Origin: a virus | Direction: 5' to 3' (one strand) | DNA: 64,000 nucleotides | IMG/VR virus record: IMGVR_UViG_3300047491_001507 | Shown: one piece after another, positions 27,271-61,672 of the stretch | Position numbering within the stretch: the first letter of the stretch is position 1 | Layout of the letters: each line of letters opens with the position of its first letter | Position numbers and translations under genes: made by a program | The notes under the pieces: generated by a model | Told to the model about the DNA's origin: nothing | The model's database searches: none | What the model saw: the letters and a program-made list of their open reading frames with translations, nothing else

Positions 27271-27272
27271 AC

Positions 27273-31217: not shown

Positions 31218-31233
31218 TGGAGAAGAAAAATAA

Positions 31234-31308: not shown

Positions 31309-31319
31309 TGGAGGAAAAA

Positions 31320-32694: not shown

Positions 32695-32707
32695 AGGAGT
32701 TGAAGTC

Positions 32708-39706: not shown

Positions 39707-39735
39707 TCGCCGTTCCTTGGAGCGGCGATTGTTAT
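39707..39735. terminator. possible bidirectional terminator at the convergent strand switch
   Basis: TCGCCG-ttccttggag-CGGCGA hairpin flanked by T-runs on both strands, between the last + gene and the first - gene. Confidence 0.35.
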
Positions 39736-41213
39736 TTTAATACCACAAATGTTACATCTTTGCCCTGCATGTCCTCTTGAGCATCCTCATAACTGTTACA
39801 AATCGGCTTTCCTGCTCGATTTAAAGAAGTGTTGATAAAACACTCATGTCCAGTTAATTTGCCGTATTCAACCAAAAGTTCATGTAGCCAAGGGTCTTTT
39901 TCTTTATAAACGACCTGTGGCCTTGATGAAAAATCACGATGCACTATGGCTGGTAAATATTGCTTGGCCATATCAGTACAAATACAACGATATTGCATGT
40001 ATTCGCCTTTGGGACCAATGAAATATTGATCAAAAGCTTCTGATGTCACTACAGGAGCCAAAGGACGATAAAACTCTCTCCCTTTTATGCCTTCTGAAAC
40101 AATTTTGAGGTTTTCTGCCTTGGCAGAAGCGAAAATAGATCTAAATCCCAAAGCTCTTGGCCCTGCTTCGCTTTTACCCCTCATTAAAGCTACAATTTTG
40201 CCCCTAGCAATGAGTTTGGCGATCTCTTGGGGTTCCTGTGCCCCTATTTGAGGCAAAGGCGTCTGAAGGGCATTAATGGCCGCAGAATTGATTTTGGGCC
40301 ACTTCTTATAAACATGGAAATAAGCAAGAGCAGCAGCACCTAAAGCAAGACCACTATCATTAATTGGCGGTCCAAAGACCAAGTCTTGAGTCATATTGTA
40401 AATCCTGGTGTTTAGCTCCAAAGCTAATGCAGTACCTCCACCAACAACCACTCCACGATTGCTGCCAAATTTTTCTATGTTTTCTTTGATATTGACCCAG
40501 ATTTGCTCAATAAGGAACTTGTAAAAACCAGCAATAAACTCCATATCGTTTGAATTTGGATTTTTGAACTCAATATAACACGGAACTATACTGTTCCAAT
40601 CATAAGAAACATTCAATAACTTCATGACATTTTTTGCATCCCACTCAATTGGGGGGATGTGTGGCAAATAACCAGCCAATCCCATGGCTTTTCCTGCCGA
40701 ATTATGTCCTAGAAGAGTGCAAATTGGAACACTTGAAGGGACAGGAAGGGCATCTTCTATTTTGTAAAAGCCTTTTTTGTTTATTACGCCTACAAGAGAA
40801 GCTTTATTGGGTTGAGTAGGATCGATGCCATATCCACAGCCATCATAGGCTAAAAAAAGCCTTTCTTTGTCATCTGGTCGATAAAGCCAAGAAGAAACAG
40901 CATGTGCTAGATGATGATCTACGACAAGATTGAATTTGGAGTCAGGAAAAAGATGGTGAGGAGATTTTAGGTATCTAATTAAAGATGGATCGTATTTAGG
41001 AGTTGGATAATTCTCTTCGCCTAAAGAAGTGATAGCAGTAACATAGTTTCCGTTTAATAAATCTGGAAAAGCGTTGAGAATGGGATCGGGGGTATGGTAA
41101 TGGTTTTTATTTCTTGGAAAGAATCTTTCAGCTTGAGCGTAAAATTCTAACTCCGAATCGTTAAAAATAGCAATGGAAACGTCATGTTTACCGTGATATC
41201 CTATAAATCTCAT
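39732..41213 (-). CDS. carbamoyltransferase of the NodU/CmcH/TobZ family
   Basis: VVDHHLAHAVSSWLY (the DHHLAHAASAF motif) and C-terminal GPRALGFRSIFAS (GPRALGNRSIL motif). Confidence 0.75.
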   Translation of the reverse strand: MRFIGYHGKHDVSIAIFNDSELEFYAQAERFFPRNKNHYHTPDPILNAFPDLLNGNYVTAITSLGEENYPTPKYDPSLIRYLKSPHHLFPDSKFNLVVDHHLAHAVSSWLYRPDDKERLFLAYDGCGYGIDPTQPNKASLVGVINKKGFYKIEDALPVPSSVPICTLLGHNSAGKAMGLAGYLPHIPPIEWDAKNVMKLLNVSYDWNSIVPCYIEFKNPNSNDMEFIAGFYKFLIEQIWVNIKENIEKFGSNRGVVVGGGTALALELNTRIYNMTQDLVFGPPINDSGLALGAAALAYFHVYKKWPKINSAAINALQTPLPQIGAQEPQEIAKLIARGKIVALMRGKSEAGPRALGFRSIFASAKAENLKIVSEGIKGREFYRPLAPVVTSEAFDQYFIGPKGEYMQYRCICTDMAKQYLPAIVHRDFSSRPQVVYKEKDPWLHELLVEYGKLTGHECFINTSLNRAGKPICNSYEDAQEDMQGKDVTFVVLK

Positions 41214-42019
41214 AGCAGTTCGTCAGCTTGTTTGTTGTCTAATGTAAATTTCTTCATTAAATGGCCTTTGATGGCTTGGTCAGATAGTCCTTGTTTTCTA
41301 AGCAATTGAATGAATTCTTGTGGTGTAAACTCTTGTTTTGGTTTAGACAGTGGTTTGCTTGCCTGTTTTTTGGCAGAATCTACAATTCTCTGAGTTGTTT
41401 GGGCGATATTTGCCTCAACATGATCTTGATGTCTTCCAGATTGATCTGCCCACATAATAATCAGAAGCAGCTTAATTCTTTGATTATTGATAATCTTTCC
41501 ATTGACAAAAAAGTCTTTAAGGAACTTTTTGGAGAAAATATTGCCACAAAGATGCATGTGGTTTTCTACTAGCCAATCAATTAGGGCTTCATGCTGGTGA
41601 TAAATTTGCTTGACCGCTGGATCAAAATCCTCTGAAACATACGCAATAAGAGGCTTGAAATGCTTAGATTCTTGATGTCCATAAGAGGTAATTTTGCCAT
41701 CTCGTTCTTCTGTACGAGTAGCTTTGGCAATATCATGCAAGAAAGCAGCCAGGGTCAATATGTCTTTTTCTTCATCAGATATATTGAAGTCTATATCTGA
41801 AATAACAGGACACAATGGATGATTGGGGTCTTTTTGAATATTTTGCAGCTTCAACCTTACTGGCTCTAAAGCAGCAACAACCATTTTGGTGTGGGTGAGT
41901 ACATCCCCTTCTTTATGGTGTTTTGCGTCTTGTTTGATATTGTCCAACAATTGGAGAAATTTACCCCCCAATTGGGAAATATCAATACTTTCTTGTAATA
42001 GCCAGTTTTTAAATTTCAT
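41210..42019 (-). CDS. HD-domain phosphohydrolase
   Basis: HHKEGDVLTHT...LAAFLHDIAKA, an H...HD metal-binding pattern. Confidence 0.6.
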   Translation of the reverse strand: MKFKNWLLQESIDISQLGGKFLQLLDNIKQDAKHHKEGDVLTHTKMVVAALEPVRLKLQNIQKDPNHPLCPVISDIDFNISDEEKDILTLAAFLHDIAKATRTEERDGKITSYGHQESKHFKPLIAYVSEDFDPAVKQIYHQHEALIDWLVENHMHLCGNIFSKKFLKDFFVNGKIINNQRIKLLLIIMWADQSGRHQDHVEANIAQTTQRIVDSAKKQASKPLSKPKQEFTPQEFIQLLRKQGLSDQAIKGHLMKKFTLDNKQADELL

Positions 42020-42035
42020 ATGTAATATATAGAGT

Positions 42036-43019
42036 ATGGAAGTTCAAAAACTCACATGTCGTTGGGTAAGAAGCGGATTGACCTTCGGAATAGATAAACT
42101 ACATGTTTGCTGTATAACTCATCATACAAATCTAGGTTTTGTTCCGATTTGCGAATATCATGGTGGAGATTTGCCAATTGACAAAATAATGCTTAAAAGA
42201 CAAGAATTATTGGTGCAAAACGTAATTGATGGATATGATTCCTGTAAGGGATGTATTTTTCAAAATGCTGAGCCATTCAAGTCAGAATATCTATTTGATC
42301 AGTTGAATTTTTCTCATTATACGCTTTGCAATCTTAGATGCAAGTACTGCTACATAGGGATTGACTGGAATAAAGGTGGAAACCTTGGGTTGAGGAAAAA
42401 CTATTACGATGTAATGCCAGCTTTAGAACAATTGACAAAAAACAACTGGTTGGACCCTCGATCTGCTATTTATTGGGGTGGTGGAGAGCCAACATTATTG
42501 CGTAGATTTGATGAGATTCTGGGTCTTCTTTTGGATTATGGAACATACAACTTCTTGAACACCAATGGAACGGTATTTTCTCAAGCAATATTTGATAAAT
42601 TAGGACAAGACAATCTGCACATAATATATGGAATTGACAGTGGACTAAATGAGACATACAAACAAATGAAAGGCAAAGACTTTCTAGATCAAGTGTTTGA
42701 GAATTTAAAAAGATATGTTAGTGTACATGGCGATTCAATCATTGTAGCGAAATATATTATAACAGATATTAATCATAGCATTCCTGAACTAGAAGAATTT
42801 TTTAGAAGAGTTTTGGAGACAGGGGTCAAAAATCTTTATATCGATTTAGATTCAACAATAAATGCAACCCAAGAGCATATAGATGCAATGGAATATTTGA
42901 GAGATTTATTTAAAGAGACAGATGTTGATGTAAAGTTTTGTGGCTGTGGAGTAAATGCTCTACACAACCAATCTATTCATTACCATGGCGACAAAATCTT
43001 ACCTAGCTTAATTGTGTAA
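42036..43019 (+). CDS. radical SAM enzyme with Cys-rich N-terminal extension
   Basis: CNLRCKYCY (CX3CX2C) and YWGGGEPTLL; the only sizeable + strand gene inside the - block. Confidence 0.7.
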   Translation: MEVQKLTCRWVRSGLTFGIDKLHVCCITHHTNLGFVPICEYHGGDLPIDKIMLKRQELLVQNVIDGYDSCKGCIFQNAEPFKSEYLFDQLNFSHYTLCNLRCKYCYIGIDWNKGGNLGLRKNYYDVMPALEQLTKNNWLDPRSAIYWGGGEPTLLRRFDEILGLLLDYGTYNFLNTNGTVFSQAIFDKLGQDNLHIIYGIDSGLNETYKQMKGKDFLDQVFENLKRYVSVHGDSIIVAKYIITDINHSIPELEEFFRRVLETGVKNLYIDLDSTINATQEHIDAMEYLRDLFKETDVDVKFCGCGVNALHNQSIHYHGDKILPSLIV

Positions 43020-43470
43020 ACAATTCTTTCAAATAGCCTTTTGCTGCTTCGTAACTGCCAGGAGCAGTTTTTTCAGAGTTTCCTGCGACATTTAGTGTTT
43101 TAATGTTGTTTTCGTTTAGCCAGTTGACCACATCTTCTACAGGTCTGGGATTTGCCAGATCTACATCAATGTAAGGTTTTTTATAGTATTTAATGGCTTC
43201 AAATGTGCAGATTTCTCCAGGGCTTGAGAAATCAAAAGCCAAACGGATTGTTCCATCACTATTTTTAACATTTAGCTTTGTTCTAGGAACATAGCTGCTG
43301 GATGTATGGGTGGTGCATCCGAATAGGTCTTTGTATTCTGGTTTACAACCATCTAAGGTTTTAAAACCATAAGGCATTAATCCTCCGGTTCTAAATCCAA
43401 ATTCTTTGGCTGTTTCTAATCCAGCAAAATCACTGCCTGTCTGACCGCCTGATATTACTTTTTTCAACAT
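43003..43470 (-). CDS. SLOG-superfamily / MoCo-carrier-like (YpsA-like) protein
   Basis: ISGGQTGSDFAGLETA...GG..P and LNVAGNSEKTAPG match the MoCo-carrier/SLOG signature. Confidence 0.55.
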   Translation of the reverse strand: MLKKVISGGQTGSDFAGLETAKEFGFRTGGLMPYGFKTLDGCKPEYKDLFGCTTHTSSSYVPRTKLNVKNSDGTIRLAFDFSSPGEICTFEAIKYYKKPYIDVDLANPRPVEDVVNWLNENNIKTLNVAGNSEKTAPGSYEAAKGYLKELFTQLS

Positions 43471-44183
43471 TATTTTTCCTCACATTTTAATAATTCATTT
43501 AGTAGCACTTTGTAAACATGTTCATTGCCAGGAGCACATTTCGGTTCTTTTGACCCATAACCATAAAATTCACAGATTGCTCTAGCAACTCCCAGCGAAA
43601 CGTTAAGGAAAGCATGAGTTATTAGCAAAACATCGATTTTTTCCCAGTTTTTGTCCAAGAATTTTTTGATTAGGGATGCATGATGTTCAGAAAACGGATT
43701 CGGTCCAGCGAATTCTCTGGCACCAGTAACACAAAACTTTAGTGTATCAAAATTATTATCTGCACTTAAATTGTAACCAAAATATATTCTTGCTACCTCG
43801 TGCGGATCTGCATCCTCATGCCAAAATCGCATATTGATGTGTGCCCAAGGTTTATCACATTTAAATTCTTTGGTTTGTTTTGGAGTCAAACACAGAGTTT
43901 TGTGAATGACAGGTGTTCCCACATATCGTTCCACTGGCACAATTATTTGATTGCCAGACTCGTCAGCAACACAAATTTGATCATGTTCTGCCATGTGTGT
44001 CAATAAATCATTTTCAAAAATTTCATCCATATTGGTCTCTTTTTTTCTTCTTTGATATTGATGATGAAAGGGACAATGATATCCGCTGACATGGTCCGAT
44101 AAAAGACAAATCGATTCATCTGGCTTAGTGGTTTTAATTGTTATTTTTTTTGGTGTTTCAGCCGACATATCATTCTTTCTCAT
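43470..44183 (-). CDS. hypothetical protein (several His/Cys clusters)
   Basis: 237-aa ORF; an alternative ATG 15 nt inside the track start. Confidence 0.5.
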   Translation of the reverse strand: MRKNDMSAETPKKITIKTTKPDESICLLSDHVSGYHCPFHHQYQRRKKETNMDEIFENDLLTHMAEHDQICVADESGNQIIVPVERYVGTPVIHKTLCLTPKQTKEFKCDKPWAHINMRFWHEDADPHEVARIYFGYNLSADNNFDTLKFCVTGAREFAGPNPFSEHHASLIKKFLDKNWEKIDVLLITHAFLNVSLGVARAICEFYGYGSKEPKCAPGNEHVYKVLLNELLKCEEK

Positions 44184-45219: not shown

Positions 45220-46008
45220 TCATATATCTGTTCCTGCTTCGGTTGCCAATGGCAAGCCAAGGACTGATTTGAACGATTCTTTCCATCTTATCTTAGGTTC
45301 GTCCTTGAGAATATTGTAAATCTCATGAACACGTTCGTCAGTCTGTCCCATTTCAATACGAGCAATTTCTTGAGGATCAGTGTCTGGTTGTACTCTGGTT
45401 CGAACATGGTTCATTTTGCCGATCCAGAAAGTGCCTGTAATCCATGGTTCTAGTTTGTGAAACAATTCAACGACATTCTTGCTGTCTAGCATTGGTTCCA
45501 CGCTGACACTTGTCTGAAACCCCTGCTCCCAAGCATATTTTAGACAATTGAAACGTTCAGCATAAGTAGGTGCCCCTGGCTCCCAATAGGCTAAAATATT
45601 ATCATCATAAGCTCCGATGGTGAATCGGAATTGAATTTGATCTTTTTGTTCAGCGAATTTTTCACAAATAGCTTTAATCACTTCCATGTACGGTTTAGAA
45701 ACTAACAGGATGTTATTGCCTGCTTTTGTTAATCGCTGAATGGCTTCTAGAGTTTCGGGCAGTATGTCTGGTGTAAGATCATGGGCCGTGGGAAACATTA
45801 CCACGCCATCATATTTTTTACTGAATCCAGTAAAAGGTCTTTCCTTGAGTTGATTATAAGTTGTTCCCCATGTTTCTGAATCACATTTGCCTAATCGAAC
45901 TGTACGTTCACGAGCATAGCAGTATCGACAACGATGAACGCACCCCAAATGAATGTTGAGTGAAACTTTTGCCCACTCCAAGGTGCCACTGATTTTTTTC
46001 TTTGTCAT
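45220..46008 (-). CDS. radical SAM protein, SplB/COG1533-like (spore-photoproduct-lyase-type DNA repair fold)
   Basis: GCVHRCRYCYAR (CX3CX2C followed by Y-A). Confidence 0.65.
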   Translation of the reverse strand: MTKKKISGTLEWAKVSLNIHLGCVHRCRYCYARERTVRLGKCDSETWGTTYNQLKERPFTGFSKKYDGVVMFPTAHDLTPDILPETLEAIQRLTKAGNNILLVSKPYMEVIKAICEKFAEQKDQIQFRFTIGAYDDNILAYWEPGAPTYAERFNCLKYAWEQGFQTSVSVEPMLDSKNVVELFHKLEPWITGTFWIGKMNHVRTRVQPDTDPQEIARIEMGQTDERVHEIYNILKDEPKIRWKESFKSVLGLPLATEAGTDI

Positions 46009-46186: not shown

Positions 46187-46384
46187 TTAATTCCTTTCCT
46201 TAAACTTTCTAATAATATCTAAGTTGAATATATCAGCATAATTTTGTGAAGGTATTGAATCCGAAAGAATCGTTGCTTCAGCTTCAAGCCAACGTCTTTT
46301 AAGTGTGTTTTTAGCATACAGATAAGCATAAGTTGGACTTGAAGCAATTATCGCTTCACCTTCAGGAAATCTGCCAAACAACAC
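46187..46384 (-). CDS. 33-aa repeat family, short or truncated copy
   Basis: Two repeats plus the family C-terminal ADIFNLDIIRKFKERN motif, downstream of the full-length copy. Confidence 0.45.
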   Translation of the reverse strand: MLFGRFPEGEAIIASSPTYAYLYAKNTLKRRWLEAEATILSDSIPSQNYADIFNLDIIRKFKERN

Positions 46385-46406
46385 ATCTCTAGCGTAAAAA
46401 ATTCTG

Positions 46407-47009
46407 TCATGTTGTTATTCTTTCCGCAAACTTCCTGATAACATCCAAGTTAAATTGCTTGGCGTAACAACGAGTACAATCATCACTTGTAAAAATTACC
46501 TTTTCTGCTTCAGGCCAACGTGCTTTAATTATTTCTTTGGCATATCTGACGGCACAATGTGGATCTTTCGCAATTGCCGCTTCGCCTTCAGGAAATCGAT
46601 CTTTTATTATCTTAATCGCATATTCACAAGCATAATATGCACTGGTGGCAATTACTGCTTCGCACTTAGGCAAACGTTCTTGAACTACTTCTTTGACGTA
46701 ATTATAACACCATTCTGGATTTTTTAGGATTGCTGGTTCGCCTGTGAGCCAACGTCCTCGCACAATATTCTTGGCATAAAAAAAAGCATATTGCGGATTT
46801 TTCGCAATAAGCTCTTCTGCTTCAATAATTTCACGAAAATGAGTGCCATTTTTGATTATGTAATTATAAGCCTCATATGCCGTTGCAAATTCAATTCTAC
46901 TGACACCGAGTATATCACCGAGTATATTATCGAACTGCCGACCCAGATCCTGATCTCCATCTTCAGCAAGCCTCTTAACCAGAAGAGCAATCACTTCGCT
47001 AATTTTCAT
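46407..47009 (-). CDS. 33-aa repeat family protein with N-terminal ISEVIALLVKRLAEDGD module
   Basis: 200-aa ORF with 4-5 repeats. Confidence 0.6.
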   Translation of the reverse strand: MKISEVIALLVKRLAEDGDQDLGRQFDNILGDILGVSRIEFATAYEAYNYIIKNGTHFREIIEAEELIAKNPQYAFFYAKNIVRGRWLTGEPAILKNPEWCYNYVKEVVQERLPKCEAVIATSAYYACEYAIKIIKDRFPEGEAAIAKDPHCAVRYAKEIIKARWPEAEKVIFTSDDCTRCYAKQFNLDVIRKFAERITT

Positions 47010-47038: not shown

Positions 47039-47362
47039 TTATTTGTACAAATCGCCACTATCAATAAGATCTTGAAGTTCTTGAGATTTTTTGGATACGT
47101 ATTTTATATCGACCGCCACTAGGCAATTTTGTCTATAATCCAGAATGAATACTATGCCATTGCCATGGTTTACAATATATCCCAAACAAACTTTTGGGTA
47201 TTGCAGATCAATATAATAATAAGATAATCCTATTACATCTTCCCCATCTTCTATAAGATCCCCTAAAGAAGGCTCTTTGTATTTTTCTGCTTTTGGTGTT
47301 TTAATTGGCTTTGCTTGTTTTGCTTTAATCTTAGCCATGATTTGACTCTTTTCTAAATACAT
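47039..47362 (-). CDS. hypothetical protein
   Basis: 107-aa ORF; overlaps the radical SAM gene's stop. Confidence 0.5.
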   Translation of the reverse strand: MYLEKSQIMAKIKAKQAKPIKTPKAEKYKEPSLGDLIEDGEDVIGLSYYYIDLQYPKVCLGYIVNHGNGIVFILDYRQNCLVAVDIKYVSKKSQELQDLIDSGDLYK

Positions 47363-48351
47363 TCTTCAATAGGAATTGTGTCAAACGGACGGGTTCCAGA
47401 AAGAAGTGCATTCCCACAGGTAATTCTTCCTTCATCTTCAGCACGAGAAGCAATAAATACTAATACATCGTATCCTGCCTTTTTCAGTGCTTCCTCATGT
47501 TCTGTGTACGGATGGTATGTTGTATAATCTCCACATGTTTCAATACCCCATGAATTACATGAAAATGTCTTGTGCATGGGAGTTAATTTGCAAATAAACT
47601 TATCAGGATCAAAGTATTTCAGTAGGATATATGGATCAATTTCATAACCCGCAACTGCAAAATTCAAGGTAATCTTGCGGCCAAGAACGTCCAAATCTTC
47701 AACAATCTTGGCTATGTCTTCTAGACTACAAGCGTTTCCGTTAAACATCTCCTCTCGTTCTTTTTCATTCGTGGAATTGATGCTTAATTGCAATCCTGCA
47801 TCGCCACTCATGACAGTATTCTTAAACTGCATCCACTCGTGAATAAAAGAACTGAGGTTGCGATTGTTCTTTGGCATCATCGTAGATACCACTTGGTGAA
47901 CTACATCGAATTTGTAGCTCAACATTACATTCATATGTTTGGCTACAGCAAGCACTGATGGATTAAAGGTGGGCTCCCCCATTCTGGCATAATGAATGTT
48001 GAGCCGTTTTCCATGATTTACATCAGGATGTAAACTAAGACCAGCACTCACTTGTTCGATCATATCAGAACCAGTGGCATTTCTTCCTGGCCCGACATGT
48101 GGAACGTCACAAAATCTACAACCAATTGAGCATCCATATTGTGTGCTAATGGTCACGACCCATTTCTCTTCCAAAGGAAGCATTTGGGTGTGCAAAACAG
48201 GTTTTGGGCTACGAGTTAGGCCCATAGCGTCACACTTCAGATTGACTTCTTTGCCATAATCACCAATTGACAGGCACTCCAATAGACCATACTTTCCTTG
48301 AATGACAAGAATATCGCCAGTGGGAACACTAAATTGTTCGTGAATTTTCAC
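47353..48351 (-). CDS. radical SAM enzyme of the RlmN/Cfr family (rRNA/tRNA adenosine C-methyltransferase-like)
   Basis: STQYGCSIGCRFC (SxQxGCxxxCxFC), YARMGEPTFN (MGMGEPLxN) and C-terminal RITCGNAL (the DIDAACGQL Cys). Confidence 0.65.
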   Translation of the reverse strand: MKIHEQFSVPTGDILVIQGKYGLLECLSIGDYGKEVNLKCDAMGLTRSPKPVLHTQMLPLEEKWVVTISTQYGCSIGCRFCDVPHVGPGRNATGSDMIEQVSAGLSLHPDVNHGKRLNIHYARMGEPTFNPSVLAVAKHMNVMLSYKFDVVHQVVSTMMPKNNRNLSSFIHEWMQFKNTVMSGDAGLQLSINSTNEKEREEMFNGNACSLEDIAKIVEDLDVLGRKITLNFAVAGYEIDPYILLKYFDPDKFICKLTPMHKTFSCNSWGIETCGDYTTYHPYTEHEEALKKAGYDVLVFIASRAEDEGRITCGNALLSGTRPFDTIPIEECI

Positions 48352-48640
48352 AATTTAATCCTTGCTGTCCAAAATAATAAGTTCTTCCATGATGACTTTT
48401 CTCGTTTATTACAATCTTGTATGTTCTGGCGTAAGGATGAAGAGCAATGGCTTCTTTGTAAAATGATATAAGATCTTTTTGAACAGAATCATACACAACA
48501 GCATAATTACATAAATAAGCGGTTACTGTTGCTCTTAAAAGCGTTGCTTCTTCTAAGACCTTTGCCTGCGTAAACTTGACTGGTAGTAACAAAGATGCCA
48601 AACCGCCCAACACTGTTTTCAGAAGATTTCTACGATTCAT
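48329..48640 (-). CDS. putative Tat-secreted protein (paralog of 50354..50833)
   Basis: MNRRNLLKTVLGGLASLLLPVKFTQA is a twin-arginine signal; ORF trimmed to this Met. Confidence 0.55.
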   Translation of the reverse strand: MNRRNLLKTVLGGLASLLLPVKFTQAKVLEEATLLRATVTAYLCNYAVVYDSVQKDLISFYKEAIALHPYARTYKIVINEKSHHGRTYYFGQQGLNCENSRTI

Positions 48641-48881
48641 TTGATTTTTTTCTTTCTGAAAATTTGATGTTGATATCCAGATTGAATTCTTCAGCATAAA
48701 GACCGGCATACATGTAAGGAAGCAATAATTCGCCTTCAGGCCAACGATCTTTGATTACATGTCTGGCATACATGTATATCCATCCTCTGTCCTCTAGAAT
48801 CATCTTTTCTGCTTCCGCACAACGTCCATACTTGTAAGCATAATCATAGGCTTCCATTGCTGTTTCAAATTTTTTTGTCAT
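48630..48881 (-). CDS. 33-aa repeat family, short copy
   Basis: 83 aa with ~1.5 repeats plus the EEFNLDINIKFSERK C-terminal motif. Confidence 0.5.
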   Translation of the reverse strand: MTKKFETAMEAYDYAYKYGRCAEAEKMILEDRGWIYMYARHVIKDRWPEGELLLPYMYAGLYAEEFNLDINIKFSERKKSNES

Positions 48882-49570: not shown

Positions 49571-49850
49571 CGGATTGCCTCAATTCTGACAGTAATTGTT
49601 TGCCGCTTTCGGTTAATTTCCAGTGACATGCCCATTTGTCGTTTCTAGGATCAGGAAATTGTTCAATGAAACCATGTTTTTCTGCTTCTGTTAATTGATG
49701 TTCCTGCATGGCAAAAGCATCAATTTGGTCTTGTTCACAGAACCATACATCGTAACTGCCACGATAAATGTCTTTGCGTCCGCTACTTTTTCCTTCTAAG
49801 GATTCAATTTTTTCTAAAACCCAATACATCCAATAAAATTCAGAAGTCAT
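49554..49850 (-). CDS. hypothetical protein
   Basis: 98-aa ORF. Confidence 0.5.
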   Translation of the reverse strand: MTSEFYWMYWVLEKIESLEGKSSGRKDIYRGSYDVWFCEQDQIDAFAMQEHQLTEAEKHGFIEQFPDPRNDKWACHWKLTESGKQLLSELRQSDGKMS

Positions 49851-50353
49851 TTACTGACCCAACCCCTTAAAAGATCTACTTCTATACGAAGAGAATTTAT
49901 ATCCATAATAAGTTCCTTGGTTTTTTCATGAACCTCATTACGAATATTATTTATTTGAGTGTTTAAATCTCTATGTAATAAGAGAGTGTATCTGGCAACA
50001 AAATTAAATTGTCCATGTTTGAGAATTGCCTCCTCCCCTTCTGGCCAACGTCCTTTTATTACTTCTATTGCGTATAGACAAGAATAATCTGGATGAGTGG
50101 CAATTACTGCCTCGCCTTCAGGGAATCGGCCTTTAAGTATTTTTTTTGCATAATAATAAGCAAGCACAACATTTTGAGCAATCGCTGCTTCGCCTTCAGG
50201 GAATCGGCCTTTAAGTATTTCACCTGCATATCGAAAGGAGTATTCTGGATCAGTGGCAATTTTGGACTCAAGTTCGGGACAACATCCCTTAACTTCATTT
50301 AAAACGTATATGTAAGCTTCTTTTGCTGTTTCAAATTCAGGTACTTCGCTCAT
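49847..50353 (-). CDS. 33-aa repeat family protein with C-terminal coiled coil
   Basis: 3 repeats, then a DLNTQINNIRNEVHEK coiled coil. Confidence 0.6.
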   Translation of the reverse strand: MSEVPEFETAKEAYIYVLNEVKGCCPELESKIATDPEYSFRYAGEILKGRFPEGEAAIAQNVVLAYYYAKKILKGRFPEGEAVIATHPDYSCLYAIEVIKGRWPEGEEAILKHGQFNFVARYTLLLHRDLNTQINNIRNEVHEKTKELIMDINSLRIEVDLLRGWVSK

Positions 50354-50833
50354 TTAAATTGCCCCATTAGTTTGTTTTGGCCATTCATACATCCTGCCTG
50401 GATGTGTGAACCGTGCAGCTTCTTGAAATTCTACACGACGACAGTTTTCGTTTTTCTTTGTAAATGTGATGGACTGTTGTTGTGAAAGCTGGGCATCAAA
50501 ACAATCAGTTTTTAGATTTTTTCCTTCTTCTTTTAATCTATTCACCTGATTTAAAGGTACTTCCAGTATTACAACACGAAACGTATGGGCAAGATAGCAG
50601 TCTTCCATGGCTTTTTTAAAGAATGATGCGAGATCATTATGTGTGCAATCACTTATTACATGAAAATCTTTAGCACACCAGACTACCTCGCCGTCCTTAA
50701 GATAATGTCCTTGAGAATAATAGCATATTATTCTTCCTTTTAAAGCTACTGGTCTTGCCTGTGCGAACTTGATCGGCAACAACAAAGATGCCAAACCACC
50801 CAATACTGTTTTCAGAAGATTTCTACGATTCAT
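50354..50833 (-). CDS. putative Tat-secreted protein (paralog of 48329..48640)
   Basis: MNRRNLLKTVLGGLASLLLPIKFAQA. Confidence 0.55.
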   Translation of the reverse strand: MNRRNLLKTVLGGLASLLLPIKFAQARPVALKGRIICYYSQGHYLKDGEVVWCAKDFHVISDCTHNDLASFFKKAMEDCYLAHTFRVVILEVPLNQVNRLKEEGKNLKTDCFDAQLSQQQSITFTKKNENCRRVEFQEAARFTHPGRMYEWPKQTNGAI

Positions 50834-50835
50834 TT

Positions 50836-51390
50836 TTACCCCCATCTAACATGAACATTGTCACGAAGATAATTAATTTCTTCATGAATTCTCTCTATAT
50901 CATTTTGAAAATCGTTCATTTGATCACATAAAATCCGCAGCAAAAACAACGAATATTTAGCAGCTAAATCTGGTTCCGTATTAATTGCTGCTTCGCCTTC
51001 AGGAAAACGTCTCTTTGTAATTTCGGTCGCATATGCATAACTCTTCCCTGCATCTTTAGCAATTGCGTTTTCGCCTTCTGGGAAGTGTCCTCTCATTATT
51101 TCTATAGCATAACAGTAAGCATACCAAGCATCTTGGCCAATTGCATATTCGCCTTCATAATATCTGCCTTTAATTATGTCAACGGCATACCAATAAGCAT
51201 ATTGTGGGTCTTTAGCAATTGCCTTTTCGCCCTTAGGAAATCTACCTTTAAGTATATTCTTGGCATACTCATAAGCACTTTTAGCATCTCTAGCAATTTT
51301 TGACTCAAGTTCAGGACAACGTCCCTTGACTTCATATAAAACGTGTGTGTAAGCTTCCCATGCTGTTTTAAATTGAGACGATTTAGTCAT
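50836..51390 (-). CDS. 33-aa repeat family protein
   Basis: 4 repeats plus a C-terminal coiled coil; near-duplicate arrangement of 49847..50353. Confidence 0.6.
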   Translation of the reverse strand: MTKSSQFKTAWEAYTHVLYEVKGRCPELESKIARDAKSAYEYAKNILKGRFPKGEKAIAKDPQYAYWYAVDIIKGRYYEGEYAIGQDAWYAYCYAIEIMRGHFPEGENAIAKDAGKSYAYATEITKRRFPEGEAAINTEPDLAAKYSLFLLRILCDQMNDFQNDIERIHEEINYLRDNVHVRWG

Positions 51391-55275: not shown

Positions 55276-55659
55276 TCATTCCTCCAAATTCATAAAAGGG
55301 AAACCAAAAAAATCGTTTGTCATATATCCACAACCATATCCACGACCATCACCATCATAACTTCCTTGTCCTGAACCCAATTGATCAGAACTAAAATTTA
55401 ATCCATCGTGTCCAGGTATGCCACAGTATCCAGGCATGCCGCCATATCCAAACCCATGGCAATTTCCTAAACCAAACCCATTGCCACAACACACAGCGTC
55501 TTCGTTACGGCCAAGCCATTTGTCATTATATAATTTAATGCTTAGTATCTGAACATCATCATCGCCATGCCCATCTCCATTGTCAAAACCTCTCCCTGGA
55601 GTATTGCAGTTGTGATCTCCAAGCCCTTTGCCGTCACCGAAACCATCATTAGATTTCAT
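55276..55659 (-). CDS. Gly-rich GxGxG family protein
   Basis: GFGDGKGLGDHNC...GNGFGLGNCHGFGYGG...GDGRGYGCG. Confidence 0.55.
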   Translation of the reverse strand: MKSNDGFGDGKGLGDHNCNTPGRGFDNGDGHGDDDVQILSIKLYNDKWLGRNEDAVCCGNGFGLGNCHGFGYGGMPGYCGIPGHDGLNFSSDQLGSGQGSYDGDGRGYGCGYMTNDFFGFPFMNLEE

Positions 55660-55661
55660 AC

Positions 55662-55880
55662 CTAATTTACTCCAAATTTACAACCACAATTTGGACAACC
55701 TTCTATATATTCTGGGTCTTCTTTTGAAACAATCGTATCACAATGTTCATGGCAGTAAAAGCCTATTTCTCCAGCTTCTCTGTCATAAGCAATTGCTTCT
55801 ACAGGGTTTTGACAGTCATCATACTGACATCTATCTGGATATTCAAGCGGTTCATCTCGATTAACAATTTTAATTGTCAT
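55662..55880 (-). CDS. Cys-rich zinc-binding small protein
   Basis: CQYDDCQ...CHEHC...CPNCGC. Confidence 0.5.
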   Translation of the reverse strand: MTIKIVNRDEPLEYPDRCQYDDCQNPVEAIAYDREAGEIGFYCHEHCDTIVSKEDPEYIEGCPNCGCKFGVN

Positions 55881-56158
55881 ACTTTTACCTCCAAGCCATG
55901 TAATTCTGAATTTATTCCTTCGTACATGCTAGTTAGGTCATTGGCACGATGAGTGTCAATTTCATGTTGTTCAAACGGTAATGGCATGCATCTAAACCAA
56001 ACCGACACCACTTGTCCATTATAAGTTTCCACATCTAGATGTGTCGAACTATGGACTGTACCCCCATCACCGTAATATCGTGTGCCAGTTTTTGCGAATT
56101 CTTTTTGACGTTTTCTATAATTTCTGTCATGCCAGTAGTTTTTTAACCAGCCAAACAT
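55877..56158 (-). CDS. hypothetical protein
   Basis: 93-aa ORF; ATGA overlap. Confidence 0.5.
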   Translation of the reverse strand: MFGWLKNYWHDRNYRKRQKEFAKTGTRYYGDGGTVHSSTHLDVETYNGQVVSVWFRCMPLPFEQHEIDTHRANDLTSMYEGINSELHGLEVKV

Positions 56159-56418
56159 GTTAAATCACTTTCTATTTGAAGAAGAAAATAAACATAATTT
56201 ACAGCCTAATGCTACGGCTAGTCCTGTCTCTTGTATAAATTCAAAAAACGTACCGAAACTTGCAATACAAGAAATAAGAAATAAAAATGCCAAAATTAAA
56301 ATATGATTTTTATCCCAATTTAATAACATTTTTAACCTCTTGTGTAAGCTTTAAACTAGTTATGCTTGAAATGTATCAATTTTGAATACTAATTTCAATT
56401 CCAAAACGTAAATAATAC

Positions 56419-56700
56419 ATGAAATTCAAAGATTTTTTAATTGAAAGCTGCAAAGAGCCCGATTTCAACACCCTCAAGAAAAACAAAGTCAAATTAACAG
56501 ACGAAGAACGAAAAGAGGTGATGAAATCAGATGCAGTCTGGCATCATGGGTCGAATGGAGAACCGACTGCGGCTGTGTGGAAATCAGAAGTCGATGGTAA
56601 AATTTGGTACGTTACAAATACTCATCGAGCTTATAATGTTCGACCCACTCTAAAAGGTGCTATCAGCAGATATCACAAATTCATTAAAGGCACAGCTTAA
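56419..56700 (+). CDS. hypothetical protein (lone + strand gene in the - block)
   Basis: 93-aa ORF after an AT-rich gap (56160-56418) that may hold divergent promoters. Confidence 0.45.
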   Translation: MKFKDFLIESCKEPDFNTLKKNKVKLTDEERKEVMKSDAVWHHGSNGEPTAAVWKSEVDGKIWYVTNTHRAYNVRPTLKGAISRYHKFIKGTA

Positions 56701-57000
56701 TTACTTTGTTCTTACAAGTTTTGTCTCTATTAATTGGTTCTTTGGCCCTCTGACATAGAAATAATATCTAGAAACATATGTTTTATCCATATCTACATTG
56801 TGCCATTCCCCCATCCCCGTTCCACACCCTTCACCATTAATTACATCAAAAAACACATATCCGCTCCCGTCCTTGTGTCCTGAGCCATAACCACAGCCAA
56901 AACCTACTCCACTTACATCGCCACATATAATGTTTCCCTCTCCAAATCCACATCCTCTTTCGCTATCGAACTTAACACGACCGCTTAATATTGAATCCAT
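56701..57000 (-). CDS. Gly-rich GxGxG family protein
   Basis: GCGFGEGNIICGDVSGVGFGCGYGSGHKDGSGY. Confidence 0.5.
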   Translation of the reverse strand: MDSILSGRVKFDSERGCGFGEGNIICGDVSGVGFGCGYGSGHKDGSGYVFFDVINGEGCGTGMGEWHNVDMDKTYVSRYYFYVRGPKNQLIETKLVRTK

Positions 57001-57010
57001 AATTCTCCCA

Positions 57011-57286
57011 TTAATCTAAAAAAGGACATGTTCCACAACCATAAGCGTCATCCTCAATACATCCACAACCATAACCAGCTTCTAATCCACCACCTGAACC
57101 TGATCCATATCCTAGACCATGTCCGATGTCAGAATTAGGACCATATCCAGCATCCATGCCGCCACAAAATCCTGATTCGACGCCACGACCGCATCCAAAA
57201 CCAGTACTCCAGTTATTTCCCTGACCTGTAGCTGATCCACAGCCGTGACTTCCGCCAAGTAATTCATAAAGTTCAATATCATTCAT
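57011..57286 (-). CDS. Gly-rich GxGxG family protein
   Basis: ORF trimmed to MNDIELYELLGG...; ATGA overlap with the upstream gene. Confidence 0.5.
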   Translation of the reverse strand: MNDIELYELLGGSHGCGSATGQGNNWSTGFGCGRGVESGFCGGMDAGYGPNSDIGHGLGYGSGSGGGLEAGYGCGCIEDDAYGCGTCPFLD

Positions 57287-57579
57287 AAACAATCCTTTCC
57301 ATTCCCATTTCCCTCTCCAGCACCAATGCCACGCCCACACCACTCAATAGTATCTAAATCAATAATATCGTAATATTGTAATTCCTGAAGAATTCCTGCA
57401 CCAGAGCCATCTCCCCAAATATTTCCTGCACCAGAGCCATCTCCCCAATTGTATCCACAACCAGTAATACAATCGCAATAATCAAGATTTGATACACGGC
57501 CAAAAGCCCAACCATGATCTGAAGAATCTATTCCAGGGCTAATGCCATGACCCCAGCCACAACCATCAGGTTCGCTCAT
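57283..57579 (-). CDS. Gly-rich GxGxG family protein
   Basis: GCGWGHGISPG...NWGDGSGAGNIWGDGSGAG carries an internal duplication. Confidence 0.5.
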   Translation of the reverse strand: MSEPDGCGWGHGISPGIDSSDHGWAFGRVSNLDYCDCITGCGYNWGDGSGAGNIWGDGSGAGILQELQYYDIIDLDTIEWCGRGIGAGEGNGNGKDCL

Positions 57580-57851
57580 AAATCACCACCTCCAAATCCA
57601 GTTCCATCCTCATCACATCCAAATTCGCCATCTAGTCCATATTCACTTTCACTTCCACCGCCACGCCCATCATCTTGGTCACTTACATCGCTCTGATTGC
57701 CATAGCCACTACACAAAAACGTACCAGATCCATCTCCGTCTCCATAGCCATGACCTCGACCTGTTTCTGTTTCCATGTCAATACTAGGAATGCAGCCTGG
57801 ACCACTAGAAATACATTCAAGAAATGCATGGGTTTCCATTTCCGTCTCCAA
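57576..57851 (-). CDS. Gly-rich GxGxG family protein
   Basis: GRGHGYGDGDGSG...GRGGGSESEYG. Confidence 0.5.
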   Translation of the reverse strand: METEMETHAFLECISSGPGCIPSIDMETETGRGHGYGDGDGSGTFLCSGYGNQSDVSDQDDGRGGGSESEYGLDGEFGCDEDGTGFGGGDL

Positions 57852-57853
57852 AT

Positions 57854-58093
57854 CTATGGACCACTAGTTTCGTAGTTGTAATTCTGATTTCCATTTCCAG
57901 ATCCTTTTCCATAACCCCACCCGTCGCCACATCCTTCTCCATAACCTGTGCCTCTCATACTGCCAAATCCACAACAATCTTCATGGCCGCAGCCATGACC
58001 GCTTTTTGTGTAGATCCATAAATCGTCACCACCACCACAACCGGTGCCATCCTCTGAACCATGACCAGCAAAACTATTTAAACATTCTTCCAT
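57854..58093 (-). CDS. Gly-rich GxGxG family protein
   Basis: GHGSEDGTGCGGGDD...GHGCGHEDCCGFGSMRGTGYGEGCGDGWGYGKGSGNG. Confidence 0.5.
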   Translation of the reverse strand: MEECLNSFAGHGSEDGTGCGGGDDLWIYTKSGHGCGHEDCCGFGSMRGTGYGEGCGDGWGYGKGSGNGNQNYNYETSGP

Positions 58094-58404
58094 TAATATT
58101 CTCCAATTCCAATTGCAGTTTCATGACCTCTTTGGCCTAATCGAACCACTCGCTCAAGTTCAAGTCCATGTCCATAGCCATCATTATAATACGAACCAGA
58201 ACCAGTGCCTATTCCTGAGCCATGACCATCACTGCCATAACCGTACCCATCTGTACAGCCATTGCCATAGCCATTGCCGATATTATCACCTTCGCAATAT
58301 ATTCCAGCACCTTTTCCGCTGCCAATCTCTGTATCGCAACTGTGTTGGGCACATCCTGAACCATCGAGATAGCCCATTCCGCTTCCATTATTCATTAGAA
58401 TCAC
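58093..58404 (-). CDS. Gly-rich GxGxG family protein (close paralog of 61673..61966)
   Basis: GNGYGNGCTDGYGYGSDGHGSGIGTGSGSYY. Confidence 0.5.
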   Translation of the reverse strand: MILMNNGSGMGYLDGSGCAQHSCDTEIGSGKGAGIYCEGDNIGNGYGNGCTDGYGYGSDGHGSGIGTGSGSYYNDGYGHGLELERVVRLGQRGHETAIGIGEY

Positions 58405-58767
58405 CTATACAATTAATAATTCCTTTTTTCCATAACAATGATCGAAACAGTGTTCCTCTCCTGTCCCATCATGTTTACTATAAGTAAAACTGTCGCCTGA
58501 GCCATATCCTTTGCCAGAAAATACACCAGAACCAGAGCCAGGATTAATTCCAAAGCCTGTTCCACAACCTGTATAATCAAATCCAGTATGTCCTTCAGCA
58601 TTGCCTGTTCCTGCTTCAGAATCCATGTGGCCGTGAAGTCCATAGCCTGTTCCACTCACAGAACAAGAACCGCCAGCATGCCAGCCATCTCCAGAGCCCA
58701 CTCCTGCATTGAACATATAACCAAAACCTGAACTACGACCACAACCAAATTTACCATTAATCTTCAT
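58405..58767 (-). CDS. Gly-rich GxGxG family protein (close paralog of 58781..59134)
   Basis: MKINGKFGCGRSSGFGYMF...; GGTGAGGAAAAA SD. Confidence 0.55.
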   Translation of the reverse strand: MKINGKFGCGRSSGFGYMFNAGVGSGDGWHAGGSCSVSGTGYGLHGHMDSEAGTGNAEGHTGFDYTGCGTGFGINPGSGSGVFSGKGYGSGDSFTYSKHDGTGEEHCFDHCYGKKELLIV

Positions 58768-58780
58768 GATTTTTCCTCAC

Positions 58781-59134
58781 CTATACAATAAACAATTCAT
58801 TTCCATTACTATAGTCCCTTCCTGTTCCTGCTCCATCATGTTCGCTATAAAGATAACTTTCGCCATAACCATACCCATCGCCCTTACCAGTGCCAGAGCC
58901 TGTTCTTACTCCAGAACCTGTTCCACAACCTGAATAATTAAAACCAGTATGACCTACAGTATTACCTGTGCCTTTATCAGAATACCATCTGCTGGTAAGC
59001 CCATATCCTGTTCCCCTTTTAGAACAAAAACCGCTAACAAAAAACAAACCATCTCCATTGCCTGTTCCTGCCTCAGTAAACATATAGCCAGAACCCGAAC
59101 TACGACCACAACCAAATTTGCCAATATTATTCAT
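58781..59134 (-). CDS. Gly-rich GxGxG family protein
   Basis: Trimmed to MNNIGKFGCGRSSGSGYMF... Confidence 0.5.
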   Translation of the reverse strand: MNNIGKFGCGRSSGSGYMFTEAGTGNGDGLFFVSGFCSKRGTGYGLTSRWYSDKGTGNTVGHTGFNYSGCGTGSGVRTGSGTGKGDGYGYGESYLYSEHDGAGTGRDYSNGNELFIV

Positions 59135-59544
59135 GATTTTTTCACACAATAAGAAAAACTGCTGTAACTAGCTTTTTTATAAGAAACTATCCAGGTGGGT
59201 ATAATATTTCCCTCTTCAAAAATAGAATTCTCTCGATCTAATTCCATTTCAACATCTTCAAACTTCCATTCTTCAAGAAGATCTCCAATTCCATCATATA
59301 ATCTAAGAGTTGCCGTTATTGCCTGAGATGCATTGCTGAATTTATCAAATTCTTCTTTTGCTTTGTCTTTTTCTTCATACATCGTAAAATACTGTATTAT
59401 CTTGATTTTTCCGTCTAAAAACTTTAACTCGCCATTATTTTCTTCGGCAACTGGACGTTCATCCAGTCTTACAAAACTTTCTCGAAATACTATGTTGCTG
59501 TTTTTATCACTCGCTTCAAATGTCCATCGGAATTTACGCATCAA
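59131..59544 (-). CDS. hypothetical protein (not Gly-rich) embedded in the Gly-rich array
   Basis: 137-aa ORF. Confidence 0.5.
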   Translation of the reverse strand: MMRKFRWTFEASDKNSNIVFRESFVRLDERPVAEENNGELKFLDGKIKIIQYFTMYEEKDKAKEEFDKFSNASQAITATLRLYDGIGDLLEEWKFEDVEMELDRENSIFEEGNIIPTWIVSYKKASYSSFSYCVKKS

Positions 59545-59569
59545 TATTCTCCATTATTAAACAAAATTT

Positions 59570-59881
59570 TTATCCATTTCCAGTGCAATCTTGAATTACT
59601 CCCGCTCCCTCTCCACAAATTCCACGACCTAAATCAATATGTAAGCCTTCGCCATGGCCAGTGCCAGTGCCATATCCATCAGAGCATTCGCCGTAGCTAC
59701 AACTATGACCTACTCCTTCTTTTCGCCCAAAACCGCTTACTAAAAAAGATTCTCCAAAACCCTTGCCATCTTTATGTCCAAAACCACTTGCTATGCCAGA
59801 ACTAGCGGCAAGCATCTTCGGCAACGATGGTACAAATGCTAATTTTTCTTCCAACTGTTTCAGGTCAATTGTGTGTTTCAT
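59570..59881 (-). CDS. Gly-rich GxGxG family protein
   Basis: SGFGHKDGKGFGE...GYGTGTGHGEG. Confidence 0.5.
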   Translation of the reverse strand: MKHTIDLKQLEEKLAFVPSLPKMLAASSGIASGFGHKDGKGFGESFLVSGFGRKEGVGHSCSYGECSDGYGTGTGHGEGLHIDLGRGICGEGAGVIQDCTGNG

Positions 59882-60188
59882 TAATTAAATTCCTCTTGTG
59901 TAGAAGTCCATAGCCTGTTCCAATCATAGAACAAGTGAATCTTGGAGTGTCATAATGTAAATCTTGTACAAGATGTTTTTCATCATCATCACCATAACCA
60001 GACCCATCCTCTAAACCATGACTTGAAACATAGTCGCAAAAATTTCCACTTGACCCGCCACAATCTTCGCTCCCAAATCCATTGCCAATACCATATCCAA
60101 ATCCAAATTCATATTCTGATCCAAATCCACTACTAAAATCATCAATATCACTTAAACCACAACCAAATCCATTACTATCACTGTTCAT
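59865..60188 (-). CDS. Gly-rich GxGxG family protein (paralog of 60938..61222)
   Basis: Trimmed to MNSDSNGFGCGLSDIDDFSSGFGSEYEFGFGYGIGNGFGSED. Confidence 0.5.
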   Translation of the reverse strand: MNSDSNGFGCGLSDIDDFSSGFGSEYEFGFGYGIGNGFGSEDCGGSSGNFCDYVSSHGLEDGSGYGDDDEKHLVQDLHYDTPRFTCSMIGTGYGLLHKRNLINETHN

Positions 60189-60466
60189 GTATAATCTCCA
60201 TGACCACAACATTTATCTTTAGTACTTTCGCCACCAGAACCTGAAGGAATACCAAATCCATAACCATGATTTAGCAGGAAGTCTGCATATTCATCTCCTT
60301 CTCCATAACCTATGCCTAAATCGTAATTTTGTACATAATGAAGTCCATGGCCCGTTCCGTCTTTATAACCATAACCGTTTGCGAAAACGCCAATTCCATA
60401 GCCATATCCATTTCTATGACCGCTTTCTAGACCAACACTTTCAGGATAACCACAATTTTTCGTCAT
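60185..60466 (-). CDS. Gly-rich GxGxG family protein (paralog of 60463..60741)
   Basis: SGHRNGYGYGIGVFANGYGYKDGTGHG...HGYGFGIPSGSGGESTKDKCCGHGDY. Confidence 0.5.
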   Translation of the reverse strand: MTKNCGYPESVGLESGHRNGYGYGIGVFANGYGYKDGTGHGLHYVQNYDLGIGYGEGDEYADFLLNHGYGFGIPSGSGGESTKDKCCGHGDYT

Positions 60467-60741
60467 TCAATACTCCTTGTGCATTCATATTCATTATAAT
60501 CTCCATGACCACAACATTTATTTTTAGTACTTTCTAGACCAGAACCTTCAGGGTTACCAAATCCATAACCATGATTTAGCATTGATGCATCTGCATCTTC
60601 CTCTCCATGACCTATGGTTCCGTCATAATCCTCGATATTTCCATAACCTGACCCATCTCTATAACCATGACCATTTGCGAAAATGCCATTCCCATGACCA
60701 TTTCCATTTCTGTGACCACTTTCTAAATCAGAATAACTCAT
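60463..60741 (-). CDS. Gly-rich GxGxG family protein
   Basis: SGHRNGNGHGNGIFANGHGYRDGSGYG...KNKCCGHGDY. Confidence 0.5.
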   Translation of the reverse strand: MSYSDLESGHRNGNGHGNGIFANGHGYRDGSGYGNIEDYDGTIGHGEEDADASMLNHGYGFGNPEGSGLESTKNKCCGHGDYNEYECTRSIE

Positions 60742-60922
60742 GTGTGTATTCCTTATTTGAATTGTAAACTTCTACATGGCCTTCTTCGGTATACTTCCCA
60801 ATACTATATGATTTGCATAAACCTGATTCTTGCAAAGAAATAGCACAATTCTTAGCGTCTGCCAAACTTTTAAAAGAAGTTCCATAGCACGCAATTTGAG
60901 TAGTATCTGTTAAAGTAAACAT
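60728..60922 (-). CDS. hypothetical small protein
   Basis: 64-aa ORF. Confidence 0.45.
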   Translation of the reverse strand: MFTLTDTTQIACYGTSFKSLADAKNCAISLQESGLCKSYSIGKYTEEGHVEVYNSNKEYTHELF

Positions 60923-60937
60923 TGTAAATAATTCCTT

Positions 60938-61222
60938 TCATACCCACATATACTTTTTGGTGCTTCCATGACATCTACCACCGCATGGGGCACCTTGCCC
61001 CTGTGCCCATCCTTCATCACTACCATAACCAGACCCATTTTCTGAACCATTAGTAGAATGGTATTTATAAAAGTTTTCACTCGATCCATTGTAATTGTCA
61101 TTGCCATATCCTGAAGCAATGCCATACCCGAATCCGCAGCCACATTTTGATCCAAATCCACCACTAAAATCGTCAATATCTCCTAAACCACAACCAAATC
61201 CATCCACCTCAATTTCAGACAT
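60938..61222 (-). CDS. Gly-rich GxGxG family protein
   Basis: Trimmed to MSEIEVDGFGCGLGDIDDFSGGFGSKCGCGFGYGIASGYG with an AAGGTGG SD. Confidence 0.5.
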   Translation of the reverse strand: MSEIEVDGFGCGLGDIDDFSGGFGSKCGCGFGYGIASGYGNDNYNGSSENFYKYHSTNGSENGSGYGSDEGWAQGQGAPCGGRCHGSTKKYMWV

Positions 61223-61306
61223 AAATTTTTCCACCTTTACTCTATTATAACATAAAAAGCAATGAAAAAAGCTGAAGAACTCATGGAAAAACACAAAGGA
61301 GAAGGT

Positions 61307-61522: not shown

Positions 61523-61672
61523 TTCCTCTTAAACTTGGAAACGGTTTGTTCAATTCGGGCAAACATATCCTTTTAAGTATGTTCTGGCGACGAAAAATCA
61601 CTTCTTGCATTGAAAGAGTTGAAAACTTCTGCCTTCTTTGAACGCAAATCGAACACTGACATGGTTTGTATT

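Follow-up and report, generated by a model that had tools for sequence, protein, structure and literature searches.

Which reaction does a phage-type radical S-adenosylmethionine (SAM) enzyme catalyse once it has lost half of the catalytic cysteine pair of its nearest characterised relatives, and on what substrate? The question is raised by IMG/VR virus record IMGVR_UViG_3300047491_001507, a 64,000-nucleotide stretch of DNA referred to below in its entirety as the window. The open reading frame (ORF) listing of the window contains a single ORF at positions 47353-48351 (minus strand), 332 amino acids long and with a GTG start codon, which an earlier note, made from the sequence alone, had described as a phage-encoded RlmN/Cfr-like methyltransferase. 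Our analysis places its product in a distinct and very large family that descends from the RlmN/Cfr (class A) fold and has lost both the RNA-binding domain and the resolving cysteine of that fold, while retaining the [4Fe-4S]/SAM site and, on a flexible C-terminal loop, one invariant cysteine. The reading that we favour, with a probability of roughly 0.4, is that of a radical SAM enzyme working with one cysteine and acting, in the manner of queuine lyase, on a base or nucleoside of the queuosine type.

Judged by its conservation, the gene is real to a degree far beyond chance. The protein matches the profile of PHROG 24834 over its full length (E = 1.4e-105, 354 bits; protein residues 1-323 against profile positions 1-328 of 336); this is its family, and the function label of that family is unknown. 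A search of a large protein collection returned 6,444 homologues at E <= 0.001, about 63-67% identical, the closest database homologue being 89% identical, and their alignment from residue 1 onwards supports the GTG start. The family comprises more than 6,000 sequence clusters, whose members in very different phages remain about 65% identical. An identical protein with the same neighbours is present on a 19-kb assembly contig. Direct translation confirmed the three motifs on which the earlier description was based (SxQxGCxxxCxFC, MGEP and RITCGNAL). The main features of the gene are the following.

47353..48351, minus strand: radical SAM enzyme gene, 332 amino acids, GTG start; member of PHROG 24834, derived from the RlmN fold
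48190..48351, minus strand: N-terminal beta-rich region, residues 1-54, in the place of the RlmN helical RNA-binding domain and beta extension
48151..48153, minus strand: Thr67, aligned with the resolving cysteine C118 of RlmN (from alignments)
48109..48147, minus strand: CxxxCxxC [4Fe-4S]/SAM cluster motif with Cys74, Cys78 and Cys81, STQYGCSIGCRFC (direct translation)
47971..47982, minus strand: MGEP, the SAM-binding 'GGE-like' motif common to RlmN and Cfr (direct translation)
47404..47427, minus strand: RITCGNAL, C-terminal loop with Cys312 (47416-47418), which aligns with RlmN C355

Of the characterised families, RlmN/Cfr is the nearest in both sequence and predicted fold. RlmN and Cfr were the only matches of a phmmer search against the PDB sequences (best E = 9e-6), and hhalign aligned the family profile with E. 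coli RlmN (NC_000913.3) at 97.9% probability, query residues 55-316 corresponding to RlmN residues 106-359. An AlphaFold2 model built from 71 sequences (predicted local distance difference test score, pLDDT, 92.5; predicted template modelling score, pTM, 0.91) has RlmN as its top solved-structure match (TM score 0.62-0.64, 15% identity), followed by Cfr. The proteins share the radical SAM core fold, the xSxQxGCxxxCxFC and MGEP motifs, a beta extension before the core and a flexible C-terminal loop with a cysteine in a CG(N/Q) motif; Cys74, Cys78 and Cys81 are invariant in the family alignments, as is MGEP (residues M124-P127) throughout the family. The ancestry proposed in the earlier note, together with the C355-like cysteine, was thus borne out, whereas membership of the RlmN/Cfr family and the function attached to it were not.

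Two conserved cysteines define the class A methylases; one of them, C118 (C105 in Cfr), is reported to be indispensable to resolve the covalent protein-RNA intermediate, and Cfr requires both C105 and C338 (PMC9692996). Alignment of this pair, which the earlier note had proposed as a check, gave a divided answer. Cys312 aligns with RlmN C355, the methyl-carrier cysteine (C338 in Cfr; ritCGNal against daaCGQla in hhalign), and each of the 121 sequences of the phage clade that includes the query (clade A) has the C-terminal CG[NQ] motif. The position of C118, seven residues before the cluster, is occupied by Thr67, with threonine in all 121 clade A sequences and in 111 of the 112 sequences of a related prophage clade (clade B), and by I, T, L, V or M, never Cys, in the cellular clade. 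In all major clades the C-terminal CG(N/Q) cysteine is retained and a cysteine at the C118 position is absent, so that one half of the RlmN catalytic pair has been kept and the other has been lost. RlmN residues 1-105, including the N-terminal helical RNA-binding domain of the helix-hairpin-helix type, have no counterpart in the profile alignment, which starts at RlmN residue 106; in the AlphaFold2 model residues 1-40 form beta strands (residues 3-9, 12-18 and 23-29). The protein is also acidic (isoelectric point 5.6, net charge -10), whereas the core of E. coli RlmN has an isoelectric point of 8.5, a difference that counts as weak evidence. Identity to RlmN is about 15-20%. The RlmN model TIGR00048 reaches 42.1 bits against a cutoff of 290, in a match confined to residues 53-157, as opposed to 354 bits for PHROG 24834, and the Cfr models, TIGR04432 included, reach 28.7-29.6 bits against cutoffs of 468-550.

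From these results we infer that the family does not perform the two-cysteine methyl transfer of RlmN and Cfr onto rRNA. The catalytic pair is incomplete and another family matches far better, outcomes largely of the kind that the earlier note had named as refuting its reading, and the N-terminal domain is missing; therefore the two roles that the earlier note had envisaged, retargeting of A2503 or A37 methylation during infection and carriage of a Cfr-type resistance gene, lack support. MrmA, a divergent RlmN-type protein whose gene is found on mobile elements and can confer resistance, is classified within IPR004383 (PMC11983580). The phage protein resembles Cfr and MrmA in superfamily, cluster motif and carriage on mobile elements, but it has neither the first cysteine nor a family-level match, and hence there is no basis to predict resistance; a role in ribosome methylation or antibiotic resistance is unlikely. 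Thousands of family proteins in phages and metagenomes are nevertheless automatically annotated as '23S rRNA (adenine2503-C2)-methyltransferase', a label that is probably wrong for the family and could be misread as a reservoir of resistance genes in viromes. Since the family keeps half of the RlmN catalytic apparatus, its chemistry is probably one not yet described for the class A fold.

Pairwise scoring resolved several clades among the 708 clusters that were recovered by an exhaustive search of 1.84 billion representatives. Clade A is the phage clade. Clade B, from prophages of gut Firmicutes and 44-48% identical to the query, is intermediate and links clade A to clade F, whose members are 37% identical to the query (E about 1e-48) and 46% identical to clade B. 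Clade F occurs in eight species of gut Firmicutes, where its genes have ordinary chromosomal surroundings; its proteins, 810-828 amino acids long, are single polypeptides that join an N-terminal QueT-type S-component of an energy-coupling factor (ECF) transporter, a six-helix membrane domain, to the radical SAM domain and to a C-terminal PNP_UDP_1 domain most like methylthioadenosine (MTA)/S-adenosylhomocysteine (SAH) nucleosidase. The QueT model PF06177 exceeds its gathering score in 2 of 4 fused proteins, and for most of them it is either the top-scoring transporter model or the sole one above threshold. In locus L006 the clade F gene follows queA-tgt, 3.5 kb further downstream. The environmental cellular sequences that make up clade C3, a large group, share about 30% identity with the query and come from Chloroflexi, Brocadiia and others. 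Their radical SAM gene forms an operon with the genes of an isochorismatase-like hydrolase and of a thioredoxin-reductase-like flavoprotein; for each pair there are also fused proteins, and neither partner gene was found in the window or in 80 phage loci. Further small clades exist besides these four. Two loci with the three-gene arrangement of clade C3 are as follows.

L084, 3517-5948: operon of the clade C3 type
L085, 3516-5933: operon of the clade C3 type

The architecture of clade F recalls the queuosine salvage operon queK-qrtT-queL of C. difficile, which encodes the hydrolase QueK, the transporter QrtT and the radical SAM queuine lyase QueL (PMC11477304; PMC11570991); QueL converts queuine to preQ1. 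Because a QueT-type transporter and a nucleosidase are fused to the radical SAM domain, so that by gene content the fusions hold both other activities of the operon, we favour an analogous, queuine-lyase-like role for the family. The tether to a membrane transporter in these relatives, the loss of the RNA-binding domain and the acidity of the protein together suggest a small-molecule substrate, and an enzyme so tethered is unlikely to act on ribosomes. On this proposal the enzyme would direct 5'-deoxyadenosyl radical chemistry at a small nucleobase or nucleoside, with Cys312 as hydrogen-atom donor or covalent handle, the best candidate substrate being a 7-deazaguanine of the queuosine family. 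Started by the radical, side-chain cleavage of queuine or of a queuosine-derived base would give preQ1, as it does with queuine lyase, and the host tRNA-guanine transglycosylase would insert the preQ1, so that wobble queuosine (Q) would be kept on host and phage tRNAs during infection. The gene could then travel between phages on its own, because it would need only a substrate supplied by the host and downstream enzymes of the host; such a role fits both the stand-alone distribution of the phage genes and their loose association with tRNA-repair genes, described below.

The transporter and nucleosidase fusions thus offer a concrete hypothesis, salvage of queuosine precursors. If it is true, the family would be either a new branch of queuine lyases or the predicted non-orthologous substitute for them, and phages would be able, by means of one gene, to alter the wobble-Q status of tRNAs. 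An enzyme that replaces QueL without being orthologous to it has been explicitly anticipated (PMC12632869); should the family prove not to be homologous to QueL, it may represent that replacement.

Several observations weigh against this reading. QueL itself (CD630_16840, Q186P0) is listed under the Elp3-type radical SAM domain IPR006638 and not under an RlmN-type one, which tells weakly against homology; C. difficile proteins appeared neither in the homologue searches nor in a scan of a genome collection, and a tblastn search of a plasmid aimed at QueL gave no match. Orthology with QueL is accordingly doubtful, and the two may be non-orthologous. The S-component assignment rests on modest QueT scores of 37-40 bits. 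Unlike the C. difficile operon, the phage genes have no salvage functions nearby: tgt, queA, QueT and nucleosidase genes were absent from the window and from the 80 phage loci, a search of the loci of 22 relatives gave no preQ1 riboswitch at or above the Rfam gathering score, and the complete genome of Bacteroides phage Versailles, which carries a homologue, has no annotated queuosine or DpdA genes. The nucleosidase of the fused proteins could serve merely to clear 5'-deoxyadenosine, an inhibitory by-product, and the isochorismatase-like and thioredoxin-reductase-like partners of clade C3 have no obvious link to queuosine. A TIGR01212 radical SAM protein encoded beside the fused gene in locus L005 was considered as a QueL candidate and set aside, as it corresponds to MnmL/YtqA.

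The phage side of the family is extensive, with 483 confirmed matches in IMG/VR viral contigs. The homologue in phage Versailles (50% identity) belongs to a cultured phage (host B. caecimuris) that is open to genetics. For the gene under study a phage origin, as claimed in the earlier note, is plausible given the abundance of the family in viral contigs and the match of several window genes to phage families; it is unproven within the window, where no structural phage gene was detected among the ORFs scanned, and a megablast comparison of 15 kb of the window with known phages gave no match.

Phage-borne members occur as stand-alone genes. The comparison set comprised 80 IMG/VR loci with 10-kb flanks, taken from contigs of 6-459 kb, in which the gene shares 51-66% identity with the query; their ORFs were clustered with those of the window and of three other phage loci. 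Among ORFs within 10 kb there was no conserved neighbour: the radical SAM gene was present in 83 of 83 loci and the next commonest family in 10. Typical neighbours are genes of early or replication modules, such as those for DNA methyltransferases, a DnaB-like helicase, NinB and a resolvase. At least one gene for RtcB, a Thg1-like protein, a CCA-adding enzyme, a RlaP-like nucleotidyltransferase or an RNA ligase lay within 10 kb in 19 of the 80 viral loci (RtcB in 7, Thg1-like in 5, CCA-adding enzyme in 4, RNA ligase in 1), as a raw count. Genes for RNA ligase (Rnl) and Pnkp stand directly downstream of the radical SAM gene in L002, a 406-kb phage contig, and in L169, a Lachnospiraceae prophage, and RNA ligase or RlaP genes are found near other relatives.

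These neighbours give the main alternative its force. The enzyme may act directly on tRNA or another RNA in phage RNA repair or counter-defence, installing, removing or converting an anticodon-loop modification by chemistry other than that of RlmN, with the effect that repaired or phage-encoded tRNAs escape host anticodon nucleases. Its ancestry from an RNA-modifying enzyme, the recurrence of RNA-repair and tRNA-maturation genes nearby, the Rnl-Pnkp pair included, and the presence in the window itself of a Thg1-like gene and three tRNAs all argue for it, and a lone enzyme working on a macromolecule would explain the stand-alone distribution. We nevertheless consider it unlikely, as the RNA-binding domain of RlmN is absent, the protein is acidic, close relatives are fused to a six-helix membrane transporter in a way that fits a small-molecule substrate, the repair-gene counts are raw ones, and no more than 11 of 60 phage loci include a tRNA gene at a distance of up to 10 kb. 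On the same count of 11 in 60, a link to clusters of tRNA genes was dismissed as weak. A more far-reaching variant, which we hold to be rather improbable, would make the family an unrecognised class of single-cysteine, RlmN-derived radical SAM enzymes whose phage members act directly on tRNA beside phage RNA-repair enzymes such as RtcB, Rnl/Pnkp, Thg1-like proteins and CCA-adding enzyme. Such radical SAM enzymes might, though we would not expect it, convert or strip the wobble 7-deazaguanine or another anticodon-loop base and so restore or disguise tRNAs attacked by anticodon nucleases; a milder and similarly speculative version equates the family with the anticipated non-orthologous replacement of queuine lyase.

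A second alternative keeps the small-molecule substrate of the queuine-lyase-like proposal and changes its identity. The enzyme would then act on a nucleoside of the adenosine, MTA or 5'-deoxyadenosine type or on a vitamin precursor, and the fused transporter would reflect a different ECF substrate. The MTA/SAH-nucleosidase-like character of the fused nucleosidase is in keeping with this, one fused protein matches riboflavin and generic ECF S-component models besides QueT, and the isochorismatase and thioredoxin-reductase-like operon branch points to other chemistry. Yet most fused proteins have QueT as their top-scoring or sole above-threshold transporter model, and the queA-tgt neighbourhood in L006 indicates queuosine, so that we regard this alternative as decidedly unlikely.

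A role in modifying nucleotides or DNA, for hypermodification of the phage genome or remodelling of the nucleotide pool, appears more doubtful again. The gene usually lies within replication or nucleotide-metabolism modules, and its neighbours include genes for DNA methyltransferases (10 loci), DnaB-like helicase (10 loci), thymidylate synthase and Holliday-junction resolvase; however, known phage DNA hypermodification pathways are multi-gene, and no conserved DpdA, glycosylase, kinase or transferase partner was found in the 83 loci. Phage 7-deazaguanine DNA modification had been considered as the principal explanation and was rejected, no DpdA or Que genes being annotated in Versailles and none being found in the window. 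Least probable is a functional RlmN/Cfr/MrmA-type adenine C-methyltransferase on 23S rRNA A2503 or tRNA A37, with possible resistance: the cluster motif, MGEP and the C355-like cysteine are present, RlmN is the best PDB and profile match and MrmA provides a precedent for divergent mobile RlmN-type resistance genes (PMC11983580), but the scores fall far short for RlmN (42 against 290 bits) and Cfr (28-30 against 468-550) with only residues 53-157 matching, an invariant threonine replaces C118, a residue essential for turnover (PMC9692996), the N-terminal domain is missing, and MrmA lies inside IPR004383, where the phage protein does not.

In the window, two small ORFs overlap the ends of the radical SAM gene.

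48329..48709, minus strand: upstream small ORF, 126 amino acids, with a twin-arginine-like signal; overlaps the start of the radical SAM gene by 23 nucleotides
47039..47362, minus strand: downstream small ORF, 107 amino acids; overlaps the stop of the radical SAM gene by 10 nucleotides

The upstream ORF showed no conservation beside the radical SAM gene in the other phage loci among the 83 clustered, and is probably not a functional partner; the downstream ORF had no family match and was not conserved at other loci. The upstream product is one of five small window proteins with twin-arginine-like signals (RRxFL followed by a hydrophobic stretch), encoded at 5060-5398, 17477-17926, 30307-30786, 48329-48709 and 50354-50845. 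Those at 48329 and 50354, the nearest to the radical SAM gene, have a near-identical signal peptide. A second radical SAM protein of 262 amino acids is encoded 1.3 kb downstream of the gene, at 45220-46008 (minus strand); it is related to spore-photoproduct lyase, Rv2578c and 'radical SAM mobile pair B', and matches PHROG 13321 (E = 5e-16).

The tRNA and RNA-related genes of the window comprise tRNA-Arg(tct), tRNA-Lys(ttt) and tRNA-Gln(ttg), which together with a Thg1-like gene and a SpoT-type HD hydrolase gene lie at 326-479, 31233-31309, 5365-6225 and 683-1654. The Thg1-like tRNA-His guanylyltransferase matches PHROG 4717 (E = 4e-82), and the set consists of translation and tRNA-repair accessory genes typical of large phages. 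In other loci, two IMG/VR phage contigs carry a permuted tmRNA gene some 0.6 kb downstream of the radical SAM homologue (L123, 9376-9757; L124, 11585-11966), a RAGATH-14 RNA (L047, 3968-4174) and a large tRNA array adjoin a prophage copy, and a homologue of the anti-Pycsar protein Apyc1 is encoded 4.5 kb downstream of the family copy on the 406-kb phage contig (L002, 15462-16379).

A repeat of 26 amino acids (78 nucleotides; consensus about A.YA..VIKGRFPEGE.AIA.D) is present in at least 50 copies, in 10 ORFs on both strands, and makes up almost the whole of three proteins of 743, 586 and 454 amino acids. Its sole match is a sub-threshold one to Pfam Phage_FRD3 (27.6 bits against a cutoff of 28.1). 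Two genes of this kind flank the radical SAM region. The repeat regions are listed here.

7938-8798: 26-amino-acid repeat region
25121-29504: 26-amino-acid repeat region
32684-34048: 26-amino-acid repeat region
46187-47009: 26-amino-acid repeat region
49847-51390: 26-amino-acid repeat region
63357-63926: 26-amino-acid repeat region

Fifteen ORFs of 79-127 amino acids, 18-32% glycine and rich in G-aromatic and Cys motifs, are located at 55276-61966 (minus strand) and 16846-17462 (plus strand). A third radical SAM gene, at 42036-43019 (plus strand), has a weak match (E = 2.5e-4) to the GrrM/OscB maturase of glycine-rich-repeat peptides, and together with the glycine-rich ORFs it may constitute a precursor and maturase set resembling those of ribosomally synthesized and post-translationally modified peptides. 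The cluster at 39732-44183 encodes a NodU-like carbamoyltransferase, an HD-domain protein, a radical SAM protein (on the opposite strand) and a circularly permuted YpsA protein of the SLOG family, and may be a nucleotide- or nucleoside-modifying module. Elsewhere the window carries a CoaB gene (7205-7960) and a gene for a fusion of CoaC with an M23 peptidase (10022-11131).

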